From the NCBI GenBank assembly GCA_016931775.1, contig JAFGEC010000232.1:1-51673 (forward strand): a stretch of DNA of 51,673 nucleotides. The letters run 5' to 3'. The notes under the pieces are model-generated. The model was not told the origin of the DNA, made no database searches, and saw only the letters and a list, made by a program, of their open reading frames with translations. Shown here piece after piece: positions 10,334-36,235 of this stretch (the stretch's first letter is position 1; each line of letters opens with the position of its first letter). The DNA comes from Candidatus Zhuqueibacterota bacterium. GTDB taxonomy: Bacteria > Zhuqueibacterota > Zhuqueibacteria > Residuimicrobiales > JAFGEC01. The position numbers and the translations under genes were made by a program.

Positions 10334-11326
10334 ATGAAAATATTACTCACAGGTGCATCCGGTTTTCTCGGTGGTTATCTTGCGGAAAAGTTAACGAGAA
10401 AAAAACATCAAATACGTGCTATGGTCCGGAAGACAAGTGACAAAAGTATTCTTGAAAAATTAAATAACATAGAGTTGTTTACAGGTGACTTGCGTGATAA
10501 AAAATCTCTCCAGGGATGTATGGACGGTATTGATGCTGTGATACACGCCGGTGCGACAACACAAGGGAGTATGGAAGATTTCGAAAAAGGGACTATCGAC
10601 GGAACAAGATACATCATGGAGCTGGCAAAAGATGCCGATTTAAAATTGTTTCTGCTTGTCAGTTCACTCGTGGTTTATGACATCAACATCCTGGGAAAAA
10701 ATCCGCTCATAAATGAAGCTTTTCCACTGGAAAAGAATCCCCGGCTTGTAGGCCCTTACGCTTACACAAAAACAGAAAGTGAAAAAATTGCCCGGGAATA
10801 TGCGGAAAAATATAGCATACCCCTGACTGTCGTACGTCCTGGTTTAATATTCGGTGCCCGGCGCAATTTGTTTTTTCCACATCTCGGTTTTGCTGTCGCC
10901 GGAGGAAGATTAGTCATAAAAATCGGCTGGGATACCAAAGTGCTTCCTTTGACATACATTGATAACTGTTGTGAGCTGATGATTAAGCTATTAACTCATA
11001 AACCCGCCATCGGCAAAACTTTTAATATCATTGATCCCCAGACCATTACCCATAGCGAATATATTCGTTATTGGCGCAGAGCTTTACGTATAAAAGGCTT
11101 TACGGTAGCTATTCCTTTTTGTTTTTTTAAGCTTTTGGCTTTTTGTTTCGAGCAGCTCAATAAATTGCCAAAACTAAAAGGAAAATTTGGCATGAGTCGT
11201 TACAGGCTGATACCGAAATTTAAAAAAGTTCGCTTTGATGGCTCTTTGATCCTGCGTGAGCTAGGGTGGTATCCCGAGATTGAACTGGAAGAAGCATTGG
11301 AAAAAGCCTTTGAAATTAAAAAGTGA
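10334..11326 (+). CDS. NAD-dependent epimerase/dehydratase family protein (extended SDR)
   Basis: 330 aa. TGASGFLGG and YAYTK (YxxxK). AAGGAG RBS. Confidence 0.8.
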   Translation: MKILLTGASGFLGGYLAEKLTRKKHQIRAMVRKTSDKSILEKLNNIELFTGDLRDKKSLQGCMDGIDAVIHAGATTQGSMEDFEKGTIDGTRYIMELAKDADLKLFLLVSSLVVYDINILGKNPLINEAFPLEKNPRLVGPYAYTKTESEKIAREYAEKYSIPLTVVRPGLIFGARRNLFFPHLGFAVAGGRLVIKIGWDTKVLPLTYIDNCCELMIKLLTHKPAIGKTFNIIDPQTITHSEYIRYWRRALRIKGFTVAIPFCFFKLLAFCFEQLNKLPKLKGKFGMSRYRLIPKFKKVRFDGSLILRELGWYPEIELEEALEKAFEIKK

Positions 11327-12359
11327 GTCTGTTTTCAGAGGTGAAAAAATTAAATCCCTTCTAAAACCCAGATTGTTCAAATATTTAGGGCGCCTGACTT
11401 TTAGTCTGGCAATCTTAGTTTACCTGCTCAGCAAAATCAAATTGCAGGAATTCGCGGATATTTTGAATGAATTAAAATGGGAATATATACTGCTTTCAAT
11501 TTTTCCGTTTTTGGGTGAGATTTTATTAAAGACTATAAAATGGCGGATGCTTCTTCGTCTCAAGCAAATTAACGTGACTTTGCTGCATCTGTTAAAGATC
11601 TATTATGTCAGTAGTTTTATTGGTATATTCTTGCCATCCAGTCTCGGGATCGATTTACTCCGTACGTACAGTCTGGCCAAAAAAATAAAGAACACCGGAG
11701 AGTCCATTTCAACGGTTTTTATGGACCGTTTGTTGGGAATTTTATCATTGGTGTTTGTCGTCTTGCTGGGTGTTGTATTAATTAAAACCAATTTCGCCCG
11801 CAGTACATTCAAACTCATTGCCATTATTGCCGTATTATTGATTTTGCTTTTTGGATTCTTACTGTTGTTTCGTCCACTTTTAAAATGGATTGAAAAAATT
11901 TTGGTAAAGATGAACCTTCATGGTCCCGGCTTGAAAAAACTGGCCGTCGTGCTTCATGCAAGTTATGAGTCCATCGTCGGCTTTAAAAATTACAAAGCTG
12001 ATATGTTAAAGGTTTTTGGTGTTTCCATCTTGTTCCAGTTTACCCGTATTTCGATTACATATGTTCTGGCATTGGCTTTGGGAATTCAGTTGAGCATTGA
12101 GTACTGGGTAGCAATCGTTCCTCTTGTCACCCTCGCGTCTATGCTGCCCTTTGCTGTCGGTGGTTTGGGTGTTCGCGAAGGTGCTTTTGTCTGGTTCCTC
12201 TCCCAAGTCGGAATAGCCACTTCAACAGCTTTCTTTTTGTCAATTTTGGCCTTTATTCTGGGCATCTTAATCTCCCTGCCGGGGTTGTTTTTTTATTTGA
12301 AGAGCGGCATTGCGGATAAAGAGGAAAAAGTCGTGTCCGGTGTCGTCGAACAGATCTGA
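11280..12359 (+). CDS. UPF0104 / lysyl-PG-synthase-TM-like 'flippase-like' integral membrane protein
   Basis: About 8 predicted TM helices. FLPSSLGIDLLR and AVGGLGVREGAF resemble the conserved loops of the LPG_synthase_TM family. Only non-ATG starts are available (TTG 11280, 11307 or ~11370), so the start is uncertain. Confidence 0.6.
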   Translation: MNWKKHWKKPLKLKSESVFRGEKIKSLLKPRLFKYLGRLTFSLAILVYLLSKIKLQEFADILNELKWEYILLSIFPFLGEILLKTIKWRMLLRLKQINVTLLHLLKIYYVSSFIGIFLPSSLGIDLLRTYSLAKKIKNTGESISTVFMDRLLGILSLVFVVLLGVVLIKTNFARSTFKLIAIIAVLLILLFGFLLLFRPLLKWIEKILVKMNLHGPGLKKLAVVLHASYESIVGFKNYKADMLKVFGVSILFQFTRISITYVLALALGIQLSIEYWVAIVPLVTLASMLPFAVGGLGVREGAFVWFLSQVGIATSTAFFLSILAFILGILISLPGLFFYLKSGIADKEEKVVSGVVEQI

Positions 12360-12795: not shown

Positions 12796-14673
12796 GTGTT
12801 GAATAAATTAGAACAGAAAAAAATAAACTTCAAAAGATTTATTGTTTTTTCAAGTATATTCATTCTCAGTACGTTTTTTCAAAATGCCTGTTTCGGGGAG
12901 TTGGGAGTTTTTGATAGAAATCCGAATTATCTGACATATAAAGGTGAGCCCATCTTTCTTATCAGTGCCTGCCAGGAAGGTAAATGGCATATTTCAAAGT
13001 TGGATACGAATTTTATTAAAAGTATGAAGAATTTTGGCGCCAATCACACATGGATCATGTTGGATAATTACATTCGAACGAAGTGGTCATATACGAAATA
13101 CACGCCGCCTGAATACTGGCAAAAATTACGTGACATTGCCAGGGTTGCCTATGAAGAGGATGTAATACTGGGTATCAGTCTTTTCAGTTATGGTATTATA
13201 AGATATCCTCTTTCTTTTTCCTATAATAAAGAGTGCAGGGAATGTGACGGCGATCCGGGACCTCTCACACGAGGCCAGGGCTTTTTTAACCTCAGTAATC
13301 TGAATGGAGATGTTTTGGAAGCCCACCAAGTTCAGGAAAATAGTATGAAAAAAATTGTTGAAAATACGTGGATGTATCCAAATGTCTATTACCTCTACGG
13401 CTGGGAGTTAAATACGGTTTGGAATGATACCGTCGCCGAGTGGGTAAAGTGGGCCAGAAATTTTATGGAAACCGAAGGAGAGTTAGTCGCTCCAGGGAAA
13501 AAACACCTATTTGCATTGGAGAAAACCCTCACGATTGCCGAAGCTGAAACATTAGGTGTCGATTTTATTGTGGAAGAGGACGGGAATGCCGCCAAAACAG
13601 AAGGGCTGCCCTATGTCTATTGGAGTATGGATGGCATTTACCGTGGCACGCCGGTCTGGAACACATCCAGCGAACCGAAATTTAATTTGGCTTATATGCG
13701 GTCGGCGATTTTCGATACTGCTGCCGCCGGTATCGCCTCGATTTGGGGCACCGACTCTGTTGAAATGGATTATATGCACTCATTGGGCCAATTCGCAGCG
13801 ACCGTTGAAAATTGGTGTGATGAACCGGGACAAGAGATAACACTCACTACGCTACCGCCGGTGTCCGGTGGTCCCGGTATCGACCTTCCAAGTAGTGGCG
13901 CTTGTGTAGATATTGACTTTATTCCGCCTACGATTATCAACCTTTTTACTATTTCCGAGTCGGAAATGCAGATCCAATTTTCTGAACCTCTGAATCCGTT
14001 TACGGCAACGGATAAGAACAACTACCAAATAGATCCGTCACTCATTATTGTATCGGCTCAACTTTCGGAAGACCGGACAATTGTGAGTCTGCAAACGGCG
14101 ACGCATTTGAGAAATGTGATTTATACTTTGACGGTGAATAACGTTTCAGATGATGCGTACTATCCCAATCCGATCGCTCCTGGTACACAAGTATATTATT
14201 CTTATGTCACGGAATTGGTCGTATACAATGTCACACCCGCAGAATATGACACTTCAAGTGTCGATGTGGGAGAACAATATTATATCGACAGGGATTACGT
14301 TGTACAATCGATGCCGGATTCCTTGCAGGGATTGTTGTGGATTCGAACAGCCAACGATGACAAGAACAGCCAAGGTGATGATTTTGTAAAATTTTCCAGT
14401 ACAACCGATATACGAACTTTTGTCGGTTATGATATTCGTATAGCATCTCTGCCATTTTGGTTGCAGAATTGGGCCGATACAGGTACGTTTATAAAAACGT
14501 CCGACACACATTTTAGAATGTTCAAAAAAGATTTTAATTCCGGTTTTATTGAACTCGGCGGGAATTACAGTACAGCGGGAAGCATGTATATTGTGTTGAT
14601 AAAAGAAAACTTTACACCCGACACCACACCACCGGATTCACCAACAGGACTGAAAATTGAAAAGATATACTGA
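12796..14673 (+). CDS. Secreted multidomain protein: putative glycoside-hydrolase-like N-terminal domain + bacterial Ig-like domain + C-terminal CBM-like beta-sandwich
   Basis: 625 aa, GTG start. N-terminal signal peptide (KRFIVFSSIFILSTFFQNACFG). The first ~350 aa have an alternating pattern suggestive of a TIM-barrel hydrolase. The segment PPTIINLFTISESEMQIQFSEPLNPFTATDKNNYQI..YTLTVNNVSD looks like an SbsA/Big_5-type Ig domain. The C-terminal Y-x-DRDY...TANDDK...YD-x-R...PFWL pattern is seen in CBM-like modules. Confidence 0.5.
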   Translation: MLNKLEQKKINFKRFIVFSSIFILSTFFQNACFGELGVFDRNPNYLTYKGEPIFLISACQEGKWHISKLDTNFIKSMKNFGANHTWIMLDNYIRTKWSYTKYTPPEYWQKLRDIARVAYEEDVILGISLFSYGIIRYPLSFSYNKECRECDGDPGPLTRGQGFFNLSNLNGDVLEAHQVQENSMKKIVENTWMYPNVYYLYGWELNTVWNDTVAEWVKWARNFMETEGELVAPGKKHLFALEKTLTIAEAETLGVDFIVEEDGNAAKTEGLPYVYWSMDGIYRGTPVWNTSSEPKFNLAYMRSAIFDTAAAGIASIWGTDSVEMDYMHSLGQFAATVENWCDEPGQEITLTTLPPVSGGPGIDLPSSGACVDIDFIPPTIINLFTISESEMQIQFSEPLNPFTATDKNNYQIDPSLIIVSAQLSEDRTIVSLQTATHLRNVIYTLTVNNVSDDAYYPNPIAPGTQVYYSYVTELVVYNVTPAEYDTSSVDVGEQYYIDRDYVVQSMPDSLQGLLWIRTANDDKNSQGDDFVKFSSTTDIRTFVGYDIRIASLPFWLQNWADTGTFIKTSDTHFRMFKKDFNSGFIELGGNYSTAGSMYIVLIKENFTPDTTPPDSPTGLKIEKIY

Positions 14674-14811: not shown

Positions 14812-15639
14812 TCAAAAAGTGGCTCTTTTCAGCCGAATCATCACGATCTCCGGACGACAAAAAAAACGAACCGGCGGTGTAATCGTTCCTACACCCGAGG
14901 TTATTATCACATCCATATTGTCCCGTTTTTTCCGGCCGTACCGGTATTTCTGTCCATATCTGGAGGGTAATAGGGGCGCCCATGCTCCCAGCAGAGTCAC
15001 TTGCCCGCCATGAGTATGGCCGCATAATGTCAGATCGATGGCCGCATGGTCGAGTTCTTCCAGAAAATCGGGATTATGCGATAAAAGAACCGTAAAATCC
15101 TCATCGGTTACATCGTGTGTGGTATTTTCAACGAATTGTTTGTCCTCCCAAAAATCACCCACTCCGCCGATTTTAATAGAGTCCTGTTTATGATATATCC
15201 AATATGAAAGATTATCACACAGGAAAAAACCGGAGGCTTTGAACTGGGCGATTGTCTGATTTGCGCCCTCCCAATGGTCATGGTTTCCCAGTACCCCATA
15301 TATACCCAGGGGGGCATGCAGTTTTTTCAGCCGTTTGAAAACCGGAATGATATATTTACTGTCTCTGTGCACATAATCACCACCCAGAAAAATGATATCC
15401 GGATGGAGCCGGTTAATATTTTTGACAAGGCGGTCCACACGGTCAAAACTAAGATATGGACCACAGTGAATATCGGCAATAAAAACGATTTTTATTTCAT
15501 CAAAAGCGGCAGGGATGTCTGGATTGACAATTTGATAGGTGGTTATTTTTAACCATCGGGTTTCCAAGTACATATAACATGGGATGATGATAAAAAGCAG
15601 GAATAATAAATGAAATAATTTAAATTTTTCCCTGTACAT
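14812..15639 (-). CDS. Membrane-anchored metallophosphoesterase (calcineurin-like, YkuE/YaeI-type)
   Basis: 275 aa. N-terminal TM helix, then the canonical motifs DIHCGP, GGDYV, GNHDHW and CGHTHGGQ. Confidence 0.9.
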   Translation of the reverse strand: MYREKFKLFHLLFLLFIIIPCYMYLETRWLKITTYQIVNPDIPAAFDEIKIVFIADIHCGPYLSFDRVDRLVKNINRLHPDIIFLGGDYVHRDSKYIIPVFKRLKKLHAPLGIYGVLGNHDHWEGANQTIAQFKASGFFLCDNLSYWIYHKQDSIKIGGVGDFWEDKQFVENTTHDVTDEDFTVLLSHNPDFLEELDHAAIDLTLCGHTHGGQVTLLGAWAPLLPSRYGQKYRYGRKKRDNMDVIITSGVGTITPPVRFFCRPEIVMIRLKRATF

Positions 15640-15740: not shown

Positions 15741-17213
15741 TCAATCACGGATGCAAACATCTTCAGCTTCGGGGGATCGGGAAAGCGTTTTTCGGGATTT
15801 GTAATAAATCGGTAATAGGTATTTGCTGACAATTTTGTTCCTTTTTAACCAGACTGCCGTAAAATGCCATGATCCTAAAAATGCCGGAATCCAAGCCAGC
15901 GGTCCCAATTTTGTCAGACGTCTGCGCAAGTACCTGCGGCGTACTTTTTCACTGGTTTTTCGTGCTTTGCCCAGCAGTTTTTTGCGTTGTTTAAGAGATA
16001 ATTCAGGGGTTTCAAACAACGGTCTGAGGACACCCTCACGTATGGTACCCAGATATTCCACCGGATCTGCGCGAAGTAAATGATTGTTTTTTAAATAATC
16101 AAACATGCGCGTGCCGGGATAGGGGATGATGTTGAAAAAAAAGGCCAGCTGTATGGGATAATGATCAACGAATTTAAACGAATTGTGTACCTCTAGCCAT
16201 GTTTCACCCGGAGACCCGATTAGAAAGTTCAATCCCACATCATAATTCAGACGACACGCCATATCAACCGCTTTTCTGATAACATCCAGGGTTTCTCCCT
16301 TGTTCAGCAGTTTCAAAACACGATCATTTGCCGATTCGACGGCAATTTGTACTTCCCATGCTCCGACATCACGCAGCCTTTTGAGCATATATTCGTCCAC
16401 TTTGTCCGCTCTCACCCCATTTGCCAGGCTGATTTGAATATCCAATTTTCGGGATTCGATTTCAGCACAAATATCTAGTACACGCTGACGGTTAAAAGTG
16501 AAATTATCGTCCATAACCAGAAAAGTCTTATAACCTCTGTCATACCAATACTGAATTTCAGACATTACGCTGTCCACGCTGCGCATGCGAATTTTCGCAC
16601 CCATAATGGAATGTACGGCACAGAACGTACAACCAAATGGGCAACCCCGTGATGTCAGAATACCCATCTCCTTTGACAAATAGCGATCCATTTCAAATCC
16701 GGTATAGGTTGGGAATGCCAGGGAATCAATATCGGCAATCGGCCGCCGTTTGCCTGAGAACACTACCTTACCGTTCTGCCGGTAGTATAATCCTTCAATA
16801 TTTTCAATGGTTTTCCCATGGCACAGCTCTACAATAGTCTCATCACTTTCACTGATACTGGCAAAATCTATTTCAGAACATTCTTCCAGTGTTGATTCCT
16901 GAAAAGCCGAAGTGTGCGGACCGCCGATTGCTATGTCGACTTTAAATTCGTTTTTGATCTGCTGGATCATCTCATAGGCTTTTTTATAGCCCAGACTCAC
17001 CATGCTTATACCCACCAGATCCGGATTGAATGCCGCTATTTTTCCCATAATGTCTTCTATCGTATGCCCCAGTTCACGGTCGATAATTGCGTATTTTATA
17101 TTGTGCCGCAGTAGGGATTCCGCTAGGTAGCCGATACCTACCGGGGGCCTGCGGGGCGCATAAAACATGCCTCGTGTATTCTGCCTGAGTAAAAGAACGC
17201 GTTCGTATCTCAT
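15741..17213 (-). CDS. Cobalamin (B12)-binding-domain radical SAM enzyme (class B)
   Basis: 490 aa. N-terminal flavodoxin-like B12-binding domain (PDLVGISMVS...DIAIGGPH), then SRGCPFGCTFC (CxxxCxxC radical SAM cluster). The basic C-terminal tail has a hydrophobic segment. Confidence 0.9.
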   Translation of the reverse strand: MRYERVLLLRQNTRGMFYAPRRPPVGIGYLAESLLRHNIKYAIIDRELGHTIEDIMGKIAAFNPDLVGISMVSLGYKKAYEMIQQIKNEFKVDIAIGGPHTSAFQESTLEECSEIDFASISESDETIVELCHGKTIENIEGLYYRQNGKVVFSGKRRPIADIDSLAFPTYTGFEMDRYLSKEMGILTSRGCPFGCTFCAVHSIMGAKIRMRSVDSVMSEIQYWYDRGYKTFLVMDDNFTFNRQRVLDICAEIESRKLDIQISLANGVRADKVDEYMLKRLRDVGAWEVQIAVESANDRVLKLLNKGETLDVIRKAVDMACRLNYDVGLNFLIGSPGETWLEVHNSFKFVDHYPIQLAFFFNIIPYPGTRMFDYLKNNHLLRADPVEYLGTIREGVLRPLFETPELSLKQRKKLLGKARKTSEKVRRRYLRRRLTKLGPLAWIPAFLGSWHFTAVWLKRNKIVSKYLLPIYYKSRKTLSRSPEAEDVCIRD

Positions 17214-17456: not shown

Positions 17457-18005
17457 ATGCCGTCGCCTTTTGGACATTTATTATCGGGAGTGGTGATTTT
17501 CTCCGGATTCCGGAAAAAAAAGTTGAATGGATTGAATCTTTTTATACTGGTGTTGTTTTTTTCAATCTTGCCGGATTTTGACTTTTTATTCGGTTTGGTT
17601 GAAGGCCAGCCCAACAAGTACCATCACCATTTTACACATAGTTTTTTCTTTGTTGTTTTTGCGGGTGTGATCGGTGCGTGGATATTTGCGCGGTTTGAAA
17701 AAATATCCAAAAAATCGGTGATTTGGCTTTTTATCATGCCGGGTGTTGTGCACCTGTTATTGGATTCTCTGGCTATCGATACCAGCATACCGCGAGGTTC
17801 ACCTTTGTTCTGGCCGCTTTGGAAAGAGTATTTTATCAGTCCTGTACTGATATTTTCAGATATCCAACGATCGCCCGAAACGGCAAAATTTTTTCCCAGT
17901 TTGTTCAGTCGGCATAATTTCATGGCTGTAATGATCGAACTGTTGTATCTAAGTCCTTTGCTTATTTTTATAATTTGGAAAAGAAACAAGACAAACGTAA
18001 CATGA
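17457..18005 (+). CDS. DUF457/YdjM-family membrane-bound metal-dependent hydrolase
   Basis: 182 aa. GHLLSG, LPDFDF, HHHFTHSF and VHLLLDS...GSPLFWP line up with the conserved His/Asp blocks of E. coli YdjM. Several TM helices. Confidence 0.75.
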   Translation: MPSPFGHLLSGVVIFSGFRKKKLNGLNLFILVLFFSILPDFDFLFGLVEGQPNKYHHHFTHSFFFVVFAGVIGAWIFARFEKISKKSVIWLFIMPGVVHLLLDSLAIDTSIPRGSPLFWPLWKEYFISPVLIFSDIQRSPETAKFFPSLFSRHNFMAVMIELLYLSPLLIFIIWKRNKTNVT

Positions 18006-18934
18006 CAGCGGAAGACGTACAACCTGAAATATCGGTGGTTATTCCATTTTATAATGAGGTGGAAAATGCGCCCAGAGTGTGGACGGCGCTTGAAAAAACT
18101 CTCAGGCAAATGGATCTAAGCTATGAAGTTATTTTTGTGGACGACGGAAGTACCGACGGCACGCAGGATGTATTAAGAGAACTGGCGAAATCCAACAGAA
18201 CCCTAAAGGTCATTCTATTCCGGGCTAATTTTGGCCAATCGGCTGCTATGGCTGCCGGATTTGAAGCCACGCGCGGGAAAGTCGTCATTGCTATGGATGG
18301 GGATCTGCAAAACGATCCCGCCGATATTCCTAAATTATTGCATAAACTCAAAGAAGGCTATGATGTGGTGAGTGGTTGGCGTGCGGATCGAAAAGACAAA
18401 CTTATTGCCCGAAAAATCCCATCTCGAATCGCCAATCGAATTATTTGTTCTGTGACCGATGTAAAACTTCACGACACCGGTTGTTCTCTCAAAGCCTTTC
18501 ATGGTGACACATTGAGAAAAATATCACTCTATGGTGAGCTGCATCGCTTTATCCCGGCGCTGTTACGTATTGAAGGTGCCCGTATCGCAGAAATTCCGGT
18601 GACTCACCATGCACGCAAATATGGTACGTCCAAGTATAATCTGTCCCGTACTTTCAGGGTGATTATGGATTTGGTGACAATTCGTTTATTAATGAAACAT
18701 TTACAGAATCCGCTGGTTTTTTTTGCCAGAATCTCGTTTTTATTTTTTTTTGCAGGAGCGGCCGCCTTTGCCGCATCTGTCTACATGCTGTCTGTTCAGA
18801 ATGCGCTTTTCGCAGATCTCAATATCCTGTTGATCTTGACTGCCCTGCTTTGGGCTTCATCGTTTCAATTTTTGCTCTTCGGCCTCGTCGGTAAGCTTGT
18901 TGTCAACAGCGGCACGAGAAAAATACTGAGCTAG
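18002..18934 (+). CDS. GT2 polyprenyl-phosphate glycosyltransferase (GtrB/ArnC/Dpm1-like) with C-terminal TM helices
   Basis: ISVVIPFYNE, VDDGSTDGT, the AMDGDLQNDP DxD motif, and DTGCSLKAF...HRFIP. Two C-terminal TM helices. Start set at ATG 18002 (ATGA overlap with the upstream stop) rather than the track start 17975. Confidence 0.9.
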   Translation: MTAEDVQPEISVVIPFYNEVENAPRVWTALEKTLRQMDLSYEVIFVDDGSTDGTQDVLRELAKSNRTLKVILFRANFGQSAAMAAGFEATRGKVVIAMDGDLQNDPADIPKLLHKLKEGYDVVSGWRADRKDKLIARKIPSRIANRIICSVTDVKLHDTGCSLKAFHGDTLRKISLYGELHRFIPALLRIEGARIAEIPVTHHARKYGTSKYNLSRTFRVIMDLVTIRLLMKHLQNPLVFFARISFLFFFAGAAAFAASVYMLSVQNALFADLNILLILTALLWASSFQFLLFGLVGKLVVNSGTRKILS

Positions 18935-18935
18935 A

Positions 18936-19925
18936 GTGTCATTATCGAAAAAGGTGAATCAAAAGGTGACGAAACAACAACTAGAAAAAAGCCGGAATGA
19001 AGAAAAAATCAGTGTTATCGCCGCACTGTATAATCAGAAAGAGATAGTGGCTTCTCTTTGCCAAAATCTAATTGCTACTTTTAGGGACTATAAAAACTGC
19101 GAGTTTATTTTCGTCGATGACGGCAGCAGTGATAGTACTTTTGAAGCACTTAAAAATTTGGCGGCCACGGAAAAAAATATAAAAATTGTAAAGTTACGAA
19201 CGAGGTTTGGAGAATCTTCTGCCCTTGATGCCGGATTTAAAAACGCCGATGGTGAATATATTGTTTTTTTTACAGTAAGGGTGAATATCAATCCGGCCCA
19301 TCTGGGACGACTTGTTACCAAATTGCAGCAAGGAGATGACGTTGTCATCGGTGTGCGGTCGCCCCGTCGGGATTCCTGGCTTAACCGGTTTGTATCCAGG
19401 GTTTTCAACACTATTACAAATCGAATGACCACCCTGCACCTGCATGATATTAACAGCGGTGTACTGGCGGTTCGTCGAGCCGTGCTGCAAAATGTACCAT
19501 TTTATGGCGCCTTAAATGCGTTTATCCCCGTACTCGCTTCACGTCAGGGATACAGGATTACTGAGGAAAAAATTGAGCAAATGCCGGGGCATTTTGACCA
19601 GTCCATGTATCCGACCAGTTATATCCGTCGTTTACTGGATCTTATCAGTGTGGTGTTTTTGTCAAAGTATTCCAAAAAACCTCTTCATTTTCTCGGATTT
19701 ATCGGTGCGATTTTTACTATTATAGGGCTGATAATCAATGTATATCTTTTTACTTACCGAATTTTAGGATTGATCAGTCTGGCCGGTAAACCTATGTTGC
19801 TGTTGGGTACAATTCTATTGATTATAGGCATCCAAATGATCTCTATCGGCCTGTTGGGTGAAATGATTATTTTTACACATGCCAAAGAAATCAAGGAATA
19901 TAATATAGAGGAAATTATTGATTAA
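18936..19925 (+). CDS. GtrB-like GT2 paralogue lacking the DxD metal-binding motif (possibly non-catalytic)
   Basis: 329 aa, same architecture (VDDGSSDS, C-terminal TM pair). Where neighbours have AMDGDLQNDP or NTDADNQYN it reads FFTVRVNINP, and YNE is YNQ. GTG start 1 nt after the upstream stop. Confidence 0.7.
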   Translation: MSLSKKVNQKVTKQQLEKSRNEEKISVIAALYNQKEIVASLCQNLIATFRDYKNCEFIFVDDGSSDSTFEALKNLAATEKNIKIVKLRTRFGESSALDAGFKNADGEYIVFFTVRVNINPAHLGRLVTKLQQGDDVVIGVRSPRRDSWLNRFVSRVFNTITNRMTTLHLHDINSGVLAVRRAVLQNVPFYGALNAFIPVLASRQGYRITEEKIEQMPGHFDQSMYPTSYIRRLLDLISVVFLSKYSKKPLHFLGFIGAIFTIIGLIINVYLFTYRILGLISLAGKPMLLLGTILLIIGIQMISIGLLGEMIIFTHAKEIKEYNIEEIID

Positions 19926-20909
19926 ATGAGACTTGTCATTCAAATACCCTGTTTGAATGAGGCGGAAAACTTACCATTGACTCTGTCTTGTTTACCCAAA
20001 AAGATGGATGGGATTGACGAAATTTTAATACTCGTGATTGATGACGGCAGTACCGATGGAACATCACAGGTCGCCCGTCAACATGGTGTACAGCATATTG
20101 TCCGTCTGAAAAAAAATAAAGGATTGGCACAGGGCTTTATGGCCGGATTGGATGCAGCTCTGCGTTTGGGCGCTGATATTATTGTGAACACTGATGCGGA
20201 TAACCAATATAACGCTGATGATATTCATAATCTGATCCAACCGATTATTGAAGGTAAAGCGGATTTTGTCGTCGGGGATCGGAATACGAAAAACATCGAA
20301 CATTTTTCATTTTTTAAAAAACAACTGCAGACCATCGGCAGCTGGGTGGTCCGCCAAGTGTCCAATACAAACGTTCCTGACGCAACCAGTGGATTCCGGG
20401 CGCTATCGCGGGAAGCTGCGTTGCAGATGAATGTCGTGTCGCAGTTTACATATACCCTGGAAACAATCATTCAGGCCGGCAAAAAAAATCTGGCCGTCGT
20501 CAATGTTCCTGTTCGCACCAATAAAAAAATTCGTGAATCGCGGCTTTTTTCCAGTAATTGGAGTTATGTAAAAAATTCTGTGGCCACGATGGCCCGGATT
20601 TATACAATGTACGAACCGCTCAAGATGTTTTCATACGTGGGCGCTGTGATTTTTGGACTCGGATTTCTTTTGTGTGGAAGATTTTTATATTTTTACCTCA
20701 CTTCACGTGGAACCGGCCATATTCAGTCCCTTATTCTGGCGGCCGTATTTATGATTGTGGGTTTTCAAATTTTTATTCTCGGCTTAATGGCTGATATTAT
20801 CGGTTCGAATAGAAAACTGTTGGAAAATATCTTATACCATCTTCGAAAAAGTGAAACGAAATATGTGCCCGAAACAAAAGGTGAAAAATCTAAAGAGCGG
20901 TCTCGATAA
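19926..20909 (+). CDS. GT2 polyprenyl-phosphate glycosyltransferase-like (Dpm1/GtrB-like) with C-terminal TM helices
   Basis: 327 aa. IQIPCLNE, IDDGSTDGT, and the TDADNQ DxD motif. Two C-terminal TM helices. The ATG directly follows the upstream TAA. Confidence 0.85.
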   Translation: MRLVIQIPCLNEAENLPLTLSCLPKKMDGIDEILILVIDDGSTDGTSQVARQHGVQHIVRLKKNKGLAQGFMAGLDAALRLGADIIVNTDADNQYNADDIHNLIQPIIEGKADFVVGDRNTKNIEHFSFFKKQLQTIGSWVVRQVSNTNVPDATSGFRALSREAALQMNVVSQFTYTLETIIQAGKKNLAVVNVPVRTNKKIRESRLFSSNWSYVKNSVATMARIYTMYEPLKMFSYVGAVIFGLGFLLCGRFLYFYLTSRGTGHIQSLILAAVFMIVGFQIFILGLMADIIGSNRKLLENILYHLRKSETKYVPETKGEKSKERSR

Positions 20910-22956: not shown

Positions 22957-24271
22957 AAAAATCGCCTATTTTTTAAATTTTTTTCCGGTTTTGTCGGAAA
23001 CTTTTATTCTCAGTGAAATAAAAAATCTGCTTAACAGCGGCTTGTTCATAGAGATTTATGCTTTATTTCGCTCTGATGATGATCCGGACAGCCAAACTGA
23101 ACCTTTGATCGGCAAAACCTGGTTTTTAACCGATCATTTCAAGGCCGGGAAAATAACCTGGGCTCATCTTTACATGTTTATGCATGCGCCGCGGCGCTAC
23201 ATCGCAACCCTGCTGTTTGCATTGTCTCATCGCAACTCCCGCTCGTTAATGCGGCTTTTCCTGATTTTTTTCAAATTCCATAGCAAATGTCGGCACAGCA
23301 TTAATAAAAATGATCGGCAAAATATACTTTTACATTTTTTACTGGTGATGCCTCTGACTAAATATATACTAAAAAATCCTCCATGCCATATACACGCTCA
23401 TTACTTAAATGCGAGTGTTTCATTTGCTCTGCTGGTTTCCAGGCTATGTGGGATACCCTATAGCGTTTCCATACACGCAACAGATATTTTTGTTTCTCCG
23501 GAGCTTCCGTTGGTAAAATTGCATAATGCAGCGTTTATTCTTACATGTACACAATATAATAAAAAGTTTATTATTGATCGTTATCCCGCAGTCGACTCGG
23601 ACAAAATTTTGGTCAACTATCATGGTGTTGATGTAAAACGTTTGTCTCCCGAAGAAAACGGTAAAAATGAATCGACTGTTCTATTATCCATCGGCCGTCT
23701 TGTGCCTAAAAAAGGTTTTAAATTGCTTATTTCAGCATGTCAAAATCTGAAGAGGCGGGGTATTCGTTTTCACTGTTTTATTATTGGGGAAGGTGATGAA
23801 CGGGCATCACTGGAACTTTTGACTCGGATCAAACGGGTAAACGATGTGATTACCTTTACGGGTGCTGTGCCCTCCAGCAAGGTAAGAGAGTATTATCAAA
23901 AAGCCGATATTTTTGTCTTGCCATGTGTGATCGATCAAAACGGCGATCGCGATGGAATACCCAATGTCATCGCAGAAGCAATGGCTATGGAGCGCCCGGT
24001 GGTGTCCACGACCGTTTCCGGTATTCCCGAATTGGTGAATTCGGGGGAGACCGGTATTCTGGTGGAACCGGGAGACGTAGCGGCGTTGGAAAAAGCTTTG
24101 ACGTTTTTAATTCAATCTCCACGGGAGGCAAGGCGTATGGGCAAAAAAGGCAGACAAAGAGTCAAGGATGTTTTTGACCGGGAAGAGAAAACCAAGGAGT
24201 TGATTGATATTTTTAAACTAAAGGTGTATCAGAACCATGCCGCGGAACAAACAAGCCGGAGTAGTGGTTAA
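22946..24271 (+). CDS. GT-B fold glycosyltransferase (GT4, WcaL-like)
   Basis: The N-terminus KIAYFLNFFPVLSETFILSEI is typical of this GT4 subgroup. C-terminal LPCVIDQNGDRDGIPNVIAEAMAMERPVVSTTVSGIPELV. Start placed at GTG 22946; track start 22895 is probably an artefactual extension. Confidence 0.8.
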   Translation: MENRKIAYFLNFFPVLSETFILSEIKNLLNSGLFIEIYALFRSDDDPDSQTEPLIGKTWFLTDHFKAGKITWAHLYMFMHAPRRYIATLLFALSHRNSRSLMRLFLIFFKFHSKCRHSINKNDRQNILLHFLLVMPLTKYILKNPPCHIHAHYLNASVSFALLVSRLCGIPYSVSIHATDIFVSPELPLVKLHNAAFILTCTQYNKKFIIDRYPAVDSDKILVNYHGVDVKRLSPEENGKNESTVLLSIGRLVPKKGFKLLISACQNLKRRGIRFHCFIIGEGDERASLELLTRIKRVNDVITFTGAVPSSKVREYYQKADIFVLPCVIDQNGDRDGIPNVIAEAMAMERPVVSTTVSGIPELVNSGETGILVEPGDVAALEKALTFLIQSPREARRMGKKGRQRVKDVFDREEKTKELIDIFKLKVYQNHAAEQTSRSSG

Positions 24272-25055
24272 TGCTGATGATTTTGGTTTGTCGGAATCCA
24301 TTAATGCCGGTGTTTTTCAATCGGCCAAAACCGGTATCGTCTCCAGCGTTTCCCTGGCCTCCAACGGGGCCGCCTTTGGGCAAGCTGTTTTAATGCTTGC
24401 TGATCTGGATGTTTCCGCCGGATGGCATGTCAATTTAACAAGTGGTTTTCCGGTTTCGAAATGTGTCCCGTCACTCTTGAAGGACGACCGTTTTATGGGT
24501 AAAATCGGTTTTTTACATCGTTTTTTTGCAGGGAAAATCAAAGTGGCGCATATAAAACGTGAACTTGATGCACAATTAAACAGGTTGTTGAAAGCCGGTA
24601 TCAGGCTGACACATGCCGATGGCCATCATGATATCCATTTTTTACCCGGCCTGGCACAGATTTTAGCGAATTACTTCCGCTGTGCACATATCGACCACGT
24701 CCGGTATGCGGGTTCCCGGCTGGGCCTGCTGGATGATGCTGTCAAGCCCGTGAATATATTATCCCATTGTTTGCATCGGTTGTTGAGTGAAAATTCCCCC
24801 TATCATGTCCCTAAACGTCATATAAACATGGTCTGGGGAAGGGAACTGTATTTCGCCAAAGATAAGGACGGGATTTTGACCCGTTATCTCTTATCTGCAG
24901 GCGATGGTATTCATTTAATCGTCTGTCATCCGTCGGATTTTGTCGAAAAACCGGTTTATAATTTACGCTACAACGGCGGCAGCAAGGAACTGACGGCTTT
25001 GTGTTCGGAAACCCTAAAAAATAAAGCAACTTTTATTTCTTTTAACGAACTGTAA
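24237..25055 (+). CDS. ChbG/YdjC/HpnK-family carbohydrate deacetylase
   Basis: 272 aa. VVNADDFGLSESINAG at the N-terminus and THADGHHDIH, the conserved metal-site blocks of the YdjC family. Confidence 0.85.
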   Translation: MPRNKQAGVVVNADDFGLSESINAGVFQSAKTGIVSSVSLASNGAAFGQAVLMLADLDVSAGWHVNLTSGFPVSKCVPSLLKDDRFMGKIGFLHRFFAGKIKVAHIKRELDAQLNRLLKAGIRLTHADGHHDIHFLPGLAQILANYFRCAHIDHVRYAGSRLGLLDDAVKPVNILSHCLHRLLSENSPYHVPKRHINMVWGRELYFAKDKDGILTRYLLSAGDGIHLIVCHPSDFVEKPVYNLRYNGGSKELTALCSETLKNKATFISFNEL

Positions 25056-25057
25056 AA

Positions 25058-26908
25058 ATGAACAGAAAAAATTATTATTATTTATGTTTTTTCCTGGCGT
25101 TGGCTTTGCTTTTGAGGCTGGGTTTATTGCTTATCACATGGCTCAATCCCGACGAAGGCGCACATTTGATGGATGGGCGGCTTATACTTGATGGTTACAT
25201 ACCTATCGTGGATTATGAAGCACGACAGCCGTTTTATGTTTTTATGCTGGCAGTTGTTCTTAAAATATTCGGAGCCAGTTTTATCTATGGCCGATTGTTG
25301 CCGGTGATGGCATCTCTTGGAACCGGTTTGATATTGTTTTATATCGGCCGTCGATTGTTTAACGATGCTGTCGGACTTGTCGCCTGCGCTATCTATTTGT
25401 TTTTGCCCTTTCTATTAATGTGGTCGGTTGTTGTAAAAACCGAACCCTTAACTATTCTGCTCGCGAGCGCCAGTATTCTGTTTATGTTAAAATCTTACAA
25501 CATCTCTATTGAAAATCTAGGCTGGATGGTCTTTTCCGGGATGTTTGCCGCATTGGCTTATTATGTAAGAGCTTCCGCTTTTTTAATACCGACCATCATT
25601 GTCCTCTTTCTTTTATTTCGCTATGATACCAAACCGAAAAAAAACGGACCGCGGTTATTTTTGTTTGCCTTGGGATACTTGGTCGTTTGTATTTTAGCCG
25701 GAACAGTGTTTTTATCATCTATGTCCTTTCGGGATATTCTAATATCGCAAGTTAATCCGCTGGATACAATATACGATCATGTTGCTCATTTTATTACCAA
25801 ACTTTGGATACAGGGGAAAAGCGTGGAAGGGAGTGGTTTTCGTGTCCTGGATCAAAACTTTAGCTACACAAAAGCCTCCTGGTATCAGGGTGTTGTTTTT
25901 TCTCTGTTTGTATTTGTCGGCGGGATTTTGGCTTTTCTGCATTTTCTTAGTCATCGTTTGAAACACCGGATCAATACTTATTTATTGCTTGCCATATGGA
26001 CCGGATTTATCCTTTTCCCCTACATTTATCAAACTTTTTATCGCGGTTTTTTCCCACAATATATAACTGAAGCGTTACCGCCGTTAATTCTTTTAACCGC
26101 ATCGACCGGCCATAGGTTGATGCTTAAAACATCTCTTGGTAAACGAAGAATTTTGACTGTGATAGGGGTTTTCGGTTTGTTGTTTATACTGCAAAAAGCA
26201 TTTTGGCAATATTATCCCGGATTCACATGGACGCTCATTATAGCTGCCCTTTTGTGTGGAGTGGTTTTATATCGCAAGGCAGTCAATTTTTATTCTTTAT
26301 GTTATATTGTTGTAGCTGCCGTCCTTTCAGGTATATTAAACCATTACCTGGAAGGAATCGGTGTAAACCGGCTTCTATGTGTCGGATGTACATTATTAAT
26401 GTATTCAACAATACTGCTTTGCAACTCTATTCTAAAATGGAAAAAAGTCCTACTGAAGTCCAGCAGTGTTGTGTTGCTGACCGCTTTTTATATTACCGCC
26501 ATTTACTCCGGATCGCTTATCGGTCCTCGGTATGTGGGTGTTTGGTCACCCAAAGTAGTATATCAGATTAAAAAAATCCTGGAAGAACATGGTGAACGGG
26601 CCGATACCGTGCTTTCCGGAGGGATGATTTGGACCTTTGAGTCCGGCCGTTATCCTTTTCTGAATGTATCTCATCCCACGCAATTTTTACTCAAGGAATG
26701 GCCTGATTTTGAAATTCAGTTTGAGAACAACAAACCGGATTTTATCATAAAGGAAAGCTATACGGAGAAAAAGTTTTCCTATTTCTGGGAATTCCTTGAA
26801 TCACAAATCGATAGCAGCTACAGCCTGGTAAAATCGGTTCCGGCTCCACCCGGCACAGTGGATATCTATAAATTAAACGATCCCTTCTCGACAATTGATG
26901 TTCAGTAA
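25058..26908 (+). CDS. GT-C fold polyprenyl-phosphate-sugar-dependent glycosyltransferase (ArnT/PMT, GT39/GT83-like)
   Basis: 616 aa. More than 10 TM helices followed by a soluble C-terminal domain. An acidic first-loop motif, NPDEGAHLMDG, follows TM1 as in ArnT/PMT_2 proteins. Confidence 0.75.
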   Translation: MNRKNYYYLCFFLALALLLRLGLLLITWLNPDEGAHLMDGRLILDGYIPIVDYEARQPFYVFMLAVVLKIFGASFIYGRLLPVMASLGTGLILFYIGRRLFNDAVGLVACAIYLFLPFLLMWSVVVKTEPLTILLASASILFMLKSYNISIENLGWMVFSGMFAALAYYVRASAFLIPTIIVLFLLFRYDTKPKKNGPRLFLFALGYLVVCILAGTVFLSSMSFRDILISQVNPLDTIYDHVAHFITKLWIQGKSVEGSGFRVLDQNFSYTKASWYQGVVFSLFVFVGGILAFLHFLSHRLKHRINTYLLLAIWTGFILFPYIYQTFYRGFFPQYITEALPPLILLTASTGHRLMLKTSLGKRRILTVIGVFGLLFILQKAFWQYYPGFTWTLIIAALLCGVVLYRKAVNFYSLCYIVVAAVLSGILNHYLEGIGVNRLLCVGCTLLMYSTILLCNSILKWKKVLLKSSSVVLLTAFYITAIYSGSLIGPRYVGVWSPKVVYQIKKILEEHGERADTVLSGGMIWTFESGRYPFLNVSHPTQFLLKEWPDFEIQFENNKPDFIIKESYTEKKFSYFWEFLESQIDSSYSLVKSVPAPPGTVDIYKLNDPFSTIDVQ

Positions 26909-30255: not shown

Positions 30256-30623
30256 CTGTTCAGGGAATTATTCTGCTTGATATTATCGGCATAGCTTTTA
30301 TTTTTTGGATTATTTCTCTTGTTAGACATACTCGACTTTATGTGGGCTATGGCGTTATTTTTATCACATCGATATTTGCCACTATGATGATTATATCCGT
30401 TCCATTTCTGCTGCATCTGATTACCCGGCTGATGGGGGCGCTGTTTCCGGCTTCCGCTCTTACAATGCTGGCTTTGGGATTTATTATCTTCCTTTTGATC
30501 TATATACTTACCCAAACCACCATCTTATCCAATCGGCTGTCGCGCCTGGTTCAGGAAATCGCCATTCGAGATGCGGAGCAGCAAAAAAAAAATTTAAATA
30601 AAAATACGAATGCCTTTGAATAA
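30252..30623 (+). CDS. Small 4-TM membrane protein, DUF2304-like
   Basis: 123 aa. Three to four TM helices followed by an amphipathic tail, LSNRLSRLVQEIAIRD. Position immediately after a Dpm1-like GT2 (ATGA overlap) and before a GT-C gene is the usual DUF2304 context. Confidence 0.6.
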   Translation: MTVQGIILLDIIGIAFIFWIISLVRHTRLYVGYGVIFITSIFATMMIISVPFLLHLITRLMGALFPASALTMLALGFIIFLLIYILTQTTILSNRLSRLVQEIAIRDAEQQKKNLNKNTNAFE

Positions 30624-32250
30624 CGACAAGAAAATTTTCTATATTTTAATAGCCATATTGTTGGTATCGGCCGGGTTGCGGTTTTACTCGATTCATTTTG
30701 GTGAACCTTTCCGTTACCATCCCGACGAGGTGAAACTGCTATCGACGGCCGGACGTTTGCTGCAATCCAAATTTGTTGACAGCGACGCTTATTTTGCCTA
30801 CGGTGTTTATCCCGTTTTTTTTACCCTTTTGCTGGCCGTTTTGATAGGTGTTTTTATTATAATGAACATTTTAACAGGACGTTTTGCCTCCTTTGACGAT
30901 GCACGAATTCTTTATGAGAATAATCCTTTCCCTTTTTTGGCTGTCGGCCGATATTTCGTCGCCTTTCTGGGCATTTGTACCGTGTATGTTATGTACCGGC
31001 TCTTAAAGAGAATGTACAATAAGACGGTTGCCATTCTCGGCGCTGCTTTATTGGCTGTAAATTTTGTTCATGTTCGAAATTCTCATTTCAGCACCGTTGA
31101 TGTTCCTGCAACCTTCTTTACACTCTTGGGATTGTATTTTTGTGCACTGATTATCGAGAAACCTCGTCTGCGCTATTATCTTTTCGCCGCTGTTTTTATC
31201 GGTTGGGCTTTTGCCACAAAATTCAGCCTGTTTTTTTTAGCTTTGCCTTTTATTTATGCCCATTTCTGTGCATCATATACTGAAAAGTCATTTGTAACGC
31301 GATTATTGAGCAAAAATTTTTGGATTGGTTCCGTAACCGGTGTCGTCGCGTTTGTTCTTGCCTGCCCTATTATTTTCTTAAATTTCGAAAAAACCTGGGG
31401 TGGGATAATGAGGACGAAAAACTTCGAGAGCGCCGGAAAAATCGGCAGCGGTGGTGCATTGCTCTCTTATTGGACCGGACAGCAATCAGAAGGTTTTGGC
31501 GTTTTTTACCCCAATTCCATTCCCCATACTTTTGGCGTATTGCTTACCCTTATCGCCGTTTTGGGAATTTTCTATTTATGGATCCGTCATCGCAAGCAGG
31601 ATATTTTATTGCTGGCTTTTTTTATCCCTTCCTATATTATGTTCGAAGGTATGGCATACCGCGCCATGCGTCATATTTTACCTTTGATTCCCGTTATTTT
31701 GGCAGCGGTTGCTGTTTTTCTTGGCAGACTATTTATAATTTTTGGGTCAAAAAAACGTAAATATATTATTGTAGTGACCATGCTCGCGCTTTTGGGCAGT
31801 TCGGTGGCCAGAACGACGTTTTATCTCTATTATCTCGGTCAACCGGATCCGCGCAGCCAGGCACTGGAATGGTGCTTGGAACATATACCGGAGTCGAGTT
31901 CAGTAGCTGTAGAGTCATTCCCGCCGTTTTTACCCGGTTACAATGGAAATGAAGTGAAAGGTTCGACACGGTATAACATCTTTGAAATGAATTTGCTCCA
32001 GAAAGACTCCCGGCTCAGTTCAAAGCTGGTGAAAACTATTGCACAAGATTCCATTAATTACTATATTATGGATGGTTTTACACGTCATGTGTTTGACTGG
32101 GAGCAAACGTACCGTCGCTACCCTGAAATAATCAAAGACAGACAAAAATTTTTCCAATGGCTCAATTCCCACAGCCGAATTGTCGCGGAATTTAAACCTG
32201 CAAATGATAAAATTCAGCCTTTTATTCGGATTTATAGGATTATGTTTTGA
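30610..32250 (+). CDS. GT-C fold glycosyltransferase (ArnT/PMT_2-like)
   Basis: 546 aa, multi-TM with a soluble C-terminal domain. The first-loop motif FRYHPDEVKLL follows TM1. Confidence 0.75.
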   Translation: MPLNNDKKIFYILIAILLVSAGLRFYSIHFGEPFRYHPDEVKLLSTAGRLLQSKFVDSDAYFAYGVYPVFFTLLLAVLIGVFIIMNILTGRFASFDDARILYENNPFPFLAVGRYFVAFLGICTVYVMYRLLKRMYNKTVAILGAALLAVNFVHVRNSHFSTVDVPATFFTLLGLYFCALIIEKPRLRYYLFAAVFIGWAFATKFSLFFLALPFIYAHFCASYTEKSFVTRLLSKNFWIGSVTGVVAFVLACPIIFLNFEKTWGGIMRTKNFESAGKIGSGGALLSYWTGQQSEGFGVFYPNSIPHTFGVLLTLIAVLGIFYLWIRHRKQDILLLAFFIPSYIMFEGMAYRAMRHILPLIPVILAAVAVFLGRLFIIFGSKKRKYIIVVTMLALLGSSVARTTFYLYYLGQPDPRSQALEWCLEHIPESSSVAVESFPPFLPGYNGNEVKGSTRYNIFEMNLLQKDSRLSSKLVKTIAQDSINYYIMDGFTRHVFDWEQTYRRYPEIIKDRQKFFQWLNSHSRIVAEFKPANDKIQPFIRIYRIMF

Positions 32251-36112: not shown

Positions 36113-36235
36113 ATGAAATATCATTTTTTAAATCGGTTTTATAAAAAATACTTTCACGGCATTATTTCTGCAACTGAATATATTAAATATCTTTTGACTC
36201 GAAAATCTGAACTTTTATTTTTGCATCCGCTATGA
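36113..36235 (+). CDS. Candidate 40-aa micro-ORF filling the intergenic gap (hypothetical)
   Basis: ATG 36113 immediately follows TGA 36110-36112. Its TGA stop (36233-36235) overlaps ATG 36232 of the next gene. Product: MKYHFLNRFYKKYFHGIISATEYIKYLLTRKSELLFLHPL. No homology recognised. Confidence 0.2.
   Translation: MKYHFLNRFYKKYFHGIISATEYIKYLLTRKSELLFLHPL

Follow-up and report, generated by a model that had tools for sequence, protein, structure and literature searches.

A DxD-less ArnC-like protein in Candidatus Zhuqueibacterota, a candidate partner subunit of the polyprenyl-phosphate glycosyltransferase encoded beside it

What can an ArnC-like glycosyltransferase (GT) do once the acidic motif that holds its metal is gone? 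The question is raised by a 51,673-nucleotide (nt) stretch of DNA from a Candidatus Zhuqueibacterota bacterium (contig JAFGEC010000232.1, positions 1 to 51,673; this whole stretch is the window referred to below), in which three glycosyltransferase family 2 (GT2) genes, here called copy 1, copy 2 and copy 3, follow one another at 18002-20909. A first-pass annotation of the window described them as three tandem paralogues of the GtrB/ArnC type, the middle one having lost its catalytic DxD motif, and suggested that copy 2 may be a non-catalytic partner instead of a decaying gene. To our knowledge, polyprenyl-phosphate sugar synthases (ArnC, GtrB, DPMS) feed all membrane glycosylation on the outer face, and the solved examples that we know of are homotetramers in which all four active sites are equal. 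Among these enzymes, ArnC is a target in polymyxin resistance. Is copy 2 a gene on its way out, an enzyme that works without metal, or a subunit of something larger? The comparative evidence favours a partnership of copy 2 with copy 1, and the reading that we think probable, if only just, is a hetero-oligomeric polyprenyl-phosphate glycosyltransferase in which copy 1 would be the catalytic subunit and copy 2 a non-catalytic subunit for assembly or lipid handling.

An old DxD-less clade under purifying selection

Are the three genes as tightly packed as first described, and do their motifs read as reported? The open reading frames (ORFs), the junctions and the PF00535 matches bear out the packing (coordinates in Table 1). 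Read directly from the sequence, the stop codon of an upstream YdjM-family gene overlaps the start of copy 1 as ATGA, copy 1 ends with TAG at 18932-18934 and the GTG start of copy 2 follows at 18936, and the TAA of copy 2 (19923-19925) is immediately followed by the ATG of copy 3 at 19926. All three GT2 proteins exceed the PF00535 cut-off, copy 2 with 89.3 bits against 23.3 over residues 26-185. The motif positions first reported are likewise correct by alignment: copy 1 reads AMDGDLQNDP (D99-G-D101-L-Q103), copy 3 has D90-A-D92-N-Q94 and copy 2 carries FFTVRVNINP (T113-V-R115-V-N117) at the same place; the N-terminal motif, YNE or LNE in the other copies, is YNQ in copy 2, and DDGS-x-D is kept by all three. 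The word paralogues needs some qualification. The GT2 genes do stand in tandem, but they are not close relatives, with 31% identity between copies 2 and 1 and 22% between copies 3 and 1, and trees place them in separate old families. Copies 1 and 2 are closest to ArnC (copy 1 matches ArnC 9hwj at E 1.5e-43) and copy 3 to AglJ, none of them reaching an equivalog cut-off: TIGR04182 matches copy 3 at E 2e-38, under its cut-off, and the ArnC equivalog NF007986 (cut-off 529 bits) gives 175.5 bits for copy 1 and 139.8 bits for copy 2. Judged by these scores, neither copy 1 nor copy 2 would count as ArnC in the strict sense.

Could copy 2 simply be decaying? The missing DxD and YNE motifs are the only point in favour of that idea. 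The first-pass annotation had named absence or frameshifts in close relatives as the mark of simple decay; an orthologue is instead present across the phylum. A copy 2 match at E <= 1e-60 is found in 146 of 151 sampled phylum genomes and a clear orthologue in about 136 (~90%), a count that takes in three genomes whose copy 1 is cut by a contig end (the 151-genome tallies for copies 1 and 2 include two unpublished genomes, G088 and G145, of which no locus or sequence was used). The ratio of nonsynonymous to synonymous substitution rates (dN/dS), a comparison also proposed at first pass, was computed for 14 close pairs and is 0.02-0.17 for copy 2, in the range of its neighbours (0.04-0.14 for copy 1, 0.03-0.11 for copy 3), and 82 positions of copy 2 are at least 95% conserved, compared with 93 in copy 1. 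Selection on copy 2 is purifying. Its canonical catalytic residues are lost or relaxed while this selection is kept, as would be expected of a prozyme-type pseudoenzyme subunit. With an intact frame, a phylum-wide orthologue, dN/dS of about 0.1 and membership of a multi-phylum clade, the decaying duplicate or pseudogene is rejected within the limits of sequence analysis, at a probability close to nil, and the initial doubt about decay was sound.

How old, then, is the absence of the motif? All of the 120 relatives listed for copy 2 (53-82% identical) are without DxD, and nearly all read T/S-x-R. An exhaustive profile search covered 1.8 billion cluster representatives, and among the best 150 matches, which were examined, 94 have DxD and about 55 do not. 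Most of the DxD-less matches read T-L-P-x-Y-x-Q with DDGS reduced to xDGx; these form the 'PxY' sub-clade, with Tyr, not Arg, at the position of ArnC D102. In trees made with FastTree or short IQ-TREE searches, the TxR family of copy 2 and the PxY proteins form one split with a Shimodaira-Hasegawa (SH)-like support of 100 (57 rows against 99 canonical proteins, copy 1 being among the canonical ones). The split persists when the trait columns (YNE, DDGS, the N77/E93 region, DxD, the R205 region and the C-terminus) are removed, at 93 in the SH approximate likelihood-ratio test (SH-aLRT). Features of the whole clade are R-x-F-G-E, R-x-P-R-x-D, a V-x-Q block, Y-x-R-R-L-L-D and a C-terminus reading ...G-E-x-I-I-F-T-H-A-x-x-x-K-E-Y-x-I. 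PxY-type genes occur at at least 584 places in species-representative genomes, including that of cultured Salinisphaera. By these trees and alignments copy 2 belongs to an ancient, multi-phylum DxD-less clade and is not a recent degenerate paralogue; the motif is absent as first described, but its absence is ancient and defines the clade, and is not a local or recent loss. A recent tandem duplication of copy 1 is rejected, copies 1 and 2 falling in strongly separated clades. Copy 2 and its PxY-type relatives score below the cut-off of every NCBIfam model, the protein atlas gives only generic 'glycosyltransferase' cluster names, with cluster members lacking specific names except for a FemAB fusion, and no paper on a DxD-less, inactive or heteromeric polyprenyl-phosphate GT family was found among open-access papers and bioRxiv.

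A rebuilt donor site and a preserved lipid side

What has changed in copy 2, and what has been kept? Copy 2 matches ArnC (E 1.6e-33) and GtrB (E 5e-25) in sequence, and its AlphaFold2 model (predicted local distance difference test, pLDDT, 83; predicted template modelling score, pTM, 0.77) shows three helices (226-245, 249-277 and 286-318) and, at the terminus, a strand (324-328). The best Foldseek matches to this model are ArnC (E 3e-20), GtrB and DPMS, and the predicted architecture is of the ArnC/GtrB/DPMS type. In the comparison that follows, conservation comes from 48 orthologues, residue roles come from the ArnC and GtrB papers, and ArnC numbering is used for the reference residues. The metal motif, 100-DADLQN in ArnC and 94-DADLQD in GtrB, binds Mg2+/Mn2+ and the nucleotide diphosphate (PMC12690121). 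D102 and Q104 are metal ligands, N77 and R205 contact uridine diphosphate (UDP), K211 touches UDP via its backbone, and the first Asp of the motif, D100, is now the proposed catalytic base in ArnC, GtrB and DPMS (PMC12690121, PMC12698845). In place of DxD-L-Q, the copy 2 family has T/S-x-R-V-(R/H/N/K). The equivalent of D100, T113, is Thr in 38 orthologues, Ser in 7 and Ala in 3, the equivalent of D102, R115, is Arg in all 48, and at the place of Q104 stand Arg (31), His (7), Asn (6), Lys (1) and Gly (1). The equivalent of N77 is small and variable, that of R205 is an invariant Gly, and those of K211 and of the Glu of YNE (E19) are variable.

The acceptor side has been treated differently. ArnC R128 coordinates the phosphate of undecaprenyl phosphate (Und-P), R131 lies in the same R-x-x-R-x-D block, S210 touches UDP, and D133 and D158 are conserved (PMC12690121, PMC12698845). 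The equivalents of all five are invariant in the copy 2 family, R128 and R131 corresponding to R141 and R144, and the R-x-P-R-x-D block is also conserved in the PxY consensus. The acceptor phosphate is held by basic residues that include R128 and R137 in ArnC and R122 and R125 in GtrB; the R137 equivalent is Arg in 24 orthologues of copy 2 and Gln in 23. In the DDGS box, which contains the UDP contact D48 of ArnC (PMC12690121), D61 is kept in 48/48 orthologues, D62, the D48 equivalent, in 46/48 and S64 in 48/48. The D171 equivalent is kept among the best 150 cluster representatives wherever the position can be aligned. Taken together, the residue comparison indicates that the donor-diphosphate/metal site has been rebuilt in a conserved manner, with the lipid side and the fold preserved.

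Is a rebuilt site still an active one? The guanidinium group of R115 and the basic residue two positions on could replace Mg2+/Mn2+ in a metal-independent polyprenyl-phosphate glycosyltransferase, with D171 or another residue assisting, and copy 2 would then make a second lipid-linked sugar, possibly still in complex with copy 1. R115 is invariant, the Q104 equivalent is Arg, His or Lys in 39 of the 48 orthologues, DDGS with its UDP-contacting Asp, D171, R141 and R144 are all kept, and the change of the UDP contact R205 to an invariant Gly looks like a moved positive charge, not a random loss. Such chemistry is known from GT14 and bacterial GT6 enzymes, which have the GT-A fold without DxD and act without metal (PMC7185993, PMC3961637), and the locus encodes several GT-C enzymes that could draw on more than one lipid-linked donor. 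The proposed base is, however, Thr or Ser in the copy 2 family, where N77, K211 and the Glu of YNE have likewise been lost or relaxed. The PxY sub-clade, with equally strict pairing and the same C-terminal hairpin (described below), has Tyr and a degraded DDGS; a role shared by the whole clade can for this reason not rest on Arg replacing the metal, and Arg-assisted catalysis is unlikely to be what the clade has conserved. Nor would an independent enzyme account for why copy 2 is so strictly inherited together with one partner clade, or why that partner has lost the hairpin. Could an acidic residue elsewhere have taken over? Among sequence positions, the only new invariant clade-specific acidic residue is E93 (Gln in copy 1), and it is also present in the PxY sub-clade. 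Because the replacement in the TxR sub-clade is an invariant Arg, we give a metal-independent mechanism some weight there and rate it, as the main rival of the partner reading, as unlikely instead of negligible. No metal-independent GT2 polyprenyl-phosphate transferase was found in the literature searched; copy 2, if it were one, would be a metal-independent GT2 lipid-sugar synthase, of a kind that we have not found described, and of mechanistic interest.

Pairing with copy 1 and complementary C-termini

With which genes does copy 2 travel? Copy 1 is directly upstream in 29 of 29 order-level loci, and 27 of these have the full YdjM-copy 1-copy 2-copy 3 cassette; in one of the remaining two a radical S-adenosylmethionine (SAM) gene stands in place of copy 3 and in the other the contig ends after copy 2. 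At the class and phylum levels, and in related metagenome-assembled genomes (MAGs), the adjacency of copies 1 and 2 is nearly always kept, and most phylum loci have a YdjM homologue directly upstream of copy 1. Copy 3 is common but less constant: at some of these class- and phylum-level loci it has been displaced or replaced, or it was not found, and it was not seen beside the pair in loci from other phyla; copy 3 is outside the conserved core. The PxY-type genes show the same arrangement. The best 80 PxY-type loci, from other phyla, span Gammaproteobacteria, Nitrospira, Scalindua, Gemmatimonadota, Ignavibacteria, Calditrichota and Binatia. In 71 of them a canonical DxD gene stands at most 400 nt upstream on the same strand; of the other nine, five are truncated at the contig start, and the simple motif rule used did not resolve the remaining four.

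Are the partners themselves related? The upstream partners from all these phyla and copy 1 form one split with a support of 99 (SH-aLRT 87 with the trait columns removed). It was set against 92 canonical representatives and 73 stand-alone close homologues of copy 1, all of which fall outside it. The two genes also come and go together. Both are present in about 133 of the 151 phylum genomes and neither in 12, these 12 belonging to at least six families and four of them being 93-98% complete. In all 6 discordant genomes (G073 among them) the surviving gene lies at a contig end, which falls exactly at the place expected for its partner. No statistical test was applied to this co-occurrence because related genomes are not independent.

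Has the pairing left a mark on the proteins? In stand-alone homologues of copy 1 the second transmembrane helix (TM2) is followed by GLLAEL.MRTYHESQGRPIYRVRE, and their pattern G-L-L-A-E-L-x-M-R-T-Y-H-E-S-Q-G-R-P-I-Y-R-V-R-E is the same as that of the ArnC/GtrB hairpin. In the paired catalytic clade this hairpin motif is absent after TM2, and the proteins finish with a T-G-(D/S) end and a variable tail (inside the phylum, G-L-I-G-K-x-I-V-x-T-G-x-R-K and a variable tail). The DxD-less partner has a highly conserved C-terminal hairpin. In the tetramers of GtrB and ArnC the hairpin bridges adjacent protomers (PMC4728340, PMC12690121). Catalysis gone in one partner and the bridging element gone in the other would be the pattern expected of mutually dependent subunits.

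Two further canonical ArnC-like arrangements were recorded. The genome from which the window comes has a stand-alone canonical paralogue on another contig (G000:C263:2987-3931, locus L123), with DADLQDD, a C-terminal hairpin and a GT2 gene next to it; it is 40% identical to copy 1 and 36% to copy 2. The second, P0124 (633 amino acids, aa), joins two complete canonical ArnC-like modules in tandem, each with DDGS, DADLQ and its own transmembrane (TM) pair.

How could the pair work? By analogy with the ArnC and GtrB homotetramers, copies 1 and 2 would assemble into a hetero-oligomer in which copy 1 converts a nucleotide-sugar and polyprenyl phosphate into a polyprenyl-phosphate-sugar. Invariant among 48 orthologues of copy 1 are D99-G-D101-L-Q103, R127, R130, R137, D158, R205, S210 and K211. 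Copy 2 would carry out no canonical metal-dependent transfer; it would supply assembly, and probably handling of the lipid acceptor or product, because it has kept its fold and both TM helices, together with the lipid-phosphate arginines and the bridging hairpin that the copy 1 clade has lost. The product would be flipped and then used by GT-C enzymes of the locus. The sequence state, selection, synteny, clades and co-occurrence are what we observed, whereas the physical binding, the inactivity of copy 2 and the choice of sugar would be inferences. A heterodimer prediction for copies 1 and 2 (38-row alignment each) scored 0.16 against a mark of 0.32 and gives no answer either way.

Might copy 2 serve another protein altogether? 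It could be an adaptor that is no glycosyltransferase and no subunit of copy 1, binding polyprenyl phosphate or its sugar adduct and passing it to a flippase-like protein or to an acyl/aminoacyl transferase. A few natural fusions lend themselves to this idea: P0263 joins a DxD-less protein to an LPG_synthase_TM flippase-like domain, and P0185, P0191 and P0278-P0280 are fused to a FemAB-family XrtA/PEP-CTERM-associated protein or a related GNAT/FemAB-type domain (TIGR03019 reaches 326 bits in P0185, against a cut-off of 260). All of them, however, belong to the PxY sub-clade. The clade-wide conservation of the lipid-phosphate arginines and of the TM and juxtamembrane architecture would suit an adaptor, as would the flippase-like genes in the window and beside the cassette in relatives, but the invariant neighbour of the clade is the copy 1 clade and not a flippase-like or FemAB-like gene, and the complementary pattern of the hairpin suggests that copy 2 touches copy 1 directly. 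We regard such an adaptor as highly improbable.

What weighs against the hetero-oligomer of copies 1 and 2? The TxR sub-clade keeps DDGS, D171, an invariant Arg at the metal-ligand position and often a second basic residue, and such retained residues would also fit a metal-independent active site. Close homologues of copy 1 stand alone in cyanobacteria, Geobacter and Acidobacteria, and because they work alone the catalytic fold needs no partner in itself. The related genomes are non-independent samples, and the tree support, from FastTree and short IQ-TREE searches only, drops to 87-93 after removal of the trait columns. A search of longer proteins found no fusion of a copy 1-type with a copy 2-type protein, which is weak evidence; the other long matches carry unrelated extra domains. 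The partner idea of the first-pass annotation is partly supported: adjacency, the single partner clade, co-occurrence and the hairpin pattern favour the partnership with copy 1, in which copy 2 would be catalytically inactive. A wider proposal, held tentatively and placed somewhat short of probable, is that a large multi-phylum family of bacterial polyprenyl-phosphate glycosyltransferases consists of obligate heteromers of two distantly related ArnC-like proteins, a hairpin-less catalytic subunit and a DxD-less subunit with the hairpin, the latter recruiting the carrier lipid or passing the lipid-linked sugar to a flippase or modifying enzyme.

What would a confirmed pair mean? This enzyme class would then also exist in an asymmetric two-gene form, and the pair would offer a natural system in which to study the roles of the non-catalytic elements (hairpin, juxtamembrane helices, lipid-phosphate site). 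Copy 2 would be a pseudoenzyme partner with a full-length GT2 fold that acts in carrier-lipid glycosylation, of which none was found described in the literature searched. The annotation of many genes would be put right (at least 584 PxY loci alone), as these are now labelled 'glycosyltransferase' or even 'ArnC'. New here are the single DxD-less clade, its single partner clade, their multi-phylum spread, the complementary hairpin loss and the co-occurrence table.

The surrounding locus and the known systems

Where in the cell might the product of the pair be used? Positions 1-47000 of the window are nearly all one plus-strand polysaccharide locus, with a Bac_transf initiating transferase, at least eight GT4 genes, several GT2 genes, two Wzx-like genes, Wzy_C, methyltransferases, a flavin adenine dinucleotide (FAD) oxidoreductase (DAO) and a YdjC-type deacetylase. 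Its GT-C genes are three clear PMT_2/ArnT-like ones and one weak one; the PMT_2/ArnT-like proteins are likely users of lipid-linked sugars, and the remainder of the window is in keeping with a system for decorating an outer-face glycan. The features of the cluster and the candidate flippase and GT-C genes are collected in Table 1.

Table 1. Coordinates of the GT2 cluster, its motifs and the flippase-like and GT-C genes in the window
Feature	Position	Strand	Basis or remark
YdjM-family inner-membrane protein gene	17457-18005	+	PF04307 E 3.2e-20; first gene of the conserved cassette
Copy 1, canonical ArnC-like polyprenyl-phosphate GT2, 310 aa, ATG start	18002-18934	+	PF00535 E 3e-33
Copy 1, DGD (DxD) motif	18296-18304	+	Alignment of the copies, ArnC match, orthologue conservation
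Copy 2, DxD-less ArnC/GtrB-like protein, 329 aa, GTG start	18936-19925	+	PF00535 E 3.5e-25
Copy 2, DDGS box kept, D61-S64; D62 = ArnC D48	19116-19127	+	Orthologue alignment
Copy 2, FFTVRVNINP segment opposite the DxD region of copies 1 and 3	19266-19295	+	Alignment
Copy 2, T113-V114-R115 at the DxD position	19272-19280	+	Alignment, 48 orthologues
Copy 2, R141-x-P-R144-x-D146 = ArnC R128/R131 lipid-phosphate site	19356-19373	+	48/48 orthologues
Copy 2, D171 = ArnC D158, HDxxG block	19446-19448	+	48/48 orthologues
Copy 2, highly conserved C-terminal segment ...IIFTHAKEIKEYNIEEIID, matching the ArnC/GtrB beta-hairpin	19866-19922	+	Alignment, invariant residues
Copy 3, canonical AglJ/DPMS-like polyprenyl-phosphate GT2, 327 aa, ATG start	19926-20909	+	PF00535 E 1e-22
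Copy 3, DAD motif within NTDADNQYN	20193-20201	+	Alignment
LPG_synthase_TM flippase-like gene, candidate carrier-lipid flippase (inferred)	11280-12359	+	PF03706 E 9e-38
Second LPG_synthase_TM (MprF flippase-like) gene	36232-37185	+	PF03706 E 3.6e-28
Three PMT_2/ArnT-like GT-C genes	25058-26908, 30610-32250, 32247-33989	+	PF13231, PF02366; other genes between

Which proteins could flip a lipid-linked sugar here? A GtrA-type flippase was not seen in the locus. Homologues of the LPG_synthase_TM genes lie just upstream of the cassette in three relatives (loci L111, L112 and L119) and elsewhere in two others (L003 and L005). A gene of the YdjC carbohydrate deacetylase family (24237-25055, +) ends just before the first PMT_2 GT-C gene, which starts 2 nt after it, and this layout may recall the ArnD/ArnT-type deacylation of lipid-linked aminosugars before transfer. 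Divergent genes stand just upstream of the cassette, namely a B12-binding radical SAM gene (15741-17213, -; PF04055 and PF02310) and a metallophosphoesterase gene (14812-15639, -). At L103:2490-3938, directly after copy 2 and at the usual place of copy 3, lies the gene of a protein homologous to this radical SAM protein (28% identity, E 4e-39). Further upstream, a 625-aa ORF without a Pfam match (12796-14673, +) has homologous ORFs upstream of the pair in the gammaproteobacterial MAG loci L127 and L132 and may be a recurring neighbour of the pair. At the end of the polysaccharide locus, an ORF of more than 1434 aa with fn3, Big_1 and macroglobulin MG4 domains (47370-51671, +) is open at the window end.

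How do copies 1 and 2 compare with systems already described? The ArnC (PmrF) and GtrB homotetramers (PDB 9hwj, 9bhc, 8vxh, 5ekp, 9nyc-f) have, like copy 2, a GT-A domain, juxtamembrane helices, two TM helices and a C-terminal hairpin. In copy 2, by contrast, the metal/diphosphate site is rebuilt (D100/D102/Q104 to T/R/(R,H,N,K), R205 to G, with N77, K211 and E19 lost or relaxed), and whereas ArnC and GtrB are each the product of a single gene that forms a homotetramer, copy 2 is almost always paired with a second, canonical member of the family. The metal-independent GT-A enzymes GT14 C2GnT-L and bacterial GT6 resemble copy 2 in the absence of DxD. The role of the metal is taken by basic side chains in GT14 (PMC7185993) and by polypeptide contacts in bacterial GT6 (PMC3961637), and R115 of copy 2 stands exactly at the metal-ligand position. 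These enzymes belong, however, to other CAZy families and use other acceptors, and copy 2 has a sister sub-clade, PxY, without the Arg.

Motif-less relatives that are under selection and needed by an active enzyme are also known from COSMC with T-synthase (GT31) and from the trypanosomatid prozymes of DHS and PRMT1. COSMC has lost both DxD and xED (PMC7185993), and two reports describe dead paralogues as activating their enzymes within heterotetramers (PMC3663545, bioRxiv 10.1101/776112). COSMC and the prozymes are eukaryotic, and COSMC is a folding chaperone and not a stable subunit; copies 1 and 2 are bacterial, membrane-embedded and distantly related, and the loss in copy 2 is confined to the donor-side motifs.

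The nearest functional analogue of the proposed pair is GacI/GacJ of Streptococcus pyogenes. GacJ is inactive alone and forms a stable complex with GacI, on binding to which the Km for Und-P falls from 18.7 to 1.1 uM and Vmax is raised (bioRxiv 10.1101/180810). As in the window, the GT2 enzyme gene comes first and a non-catalytic membrane partner is encoded directly downstream, both for GacI/GacJ and for PpgS/Rv3632 of Mycobacterium tuberculosis. GacJ itself, 113 aa long with three TM helices, belongs to DUF2304 and is unrelated to GT2, whereas copy 2 is a full-length ArnC-like protein with a GT-A domain. The precedent of GacI/GacJ and PpgS/Rv3632 tells us that a polyprenyl-phosphate GT2 enzyme can depend on a partner encoded downstream that improves its use of Und-P.

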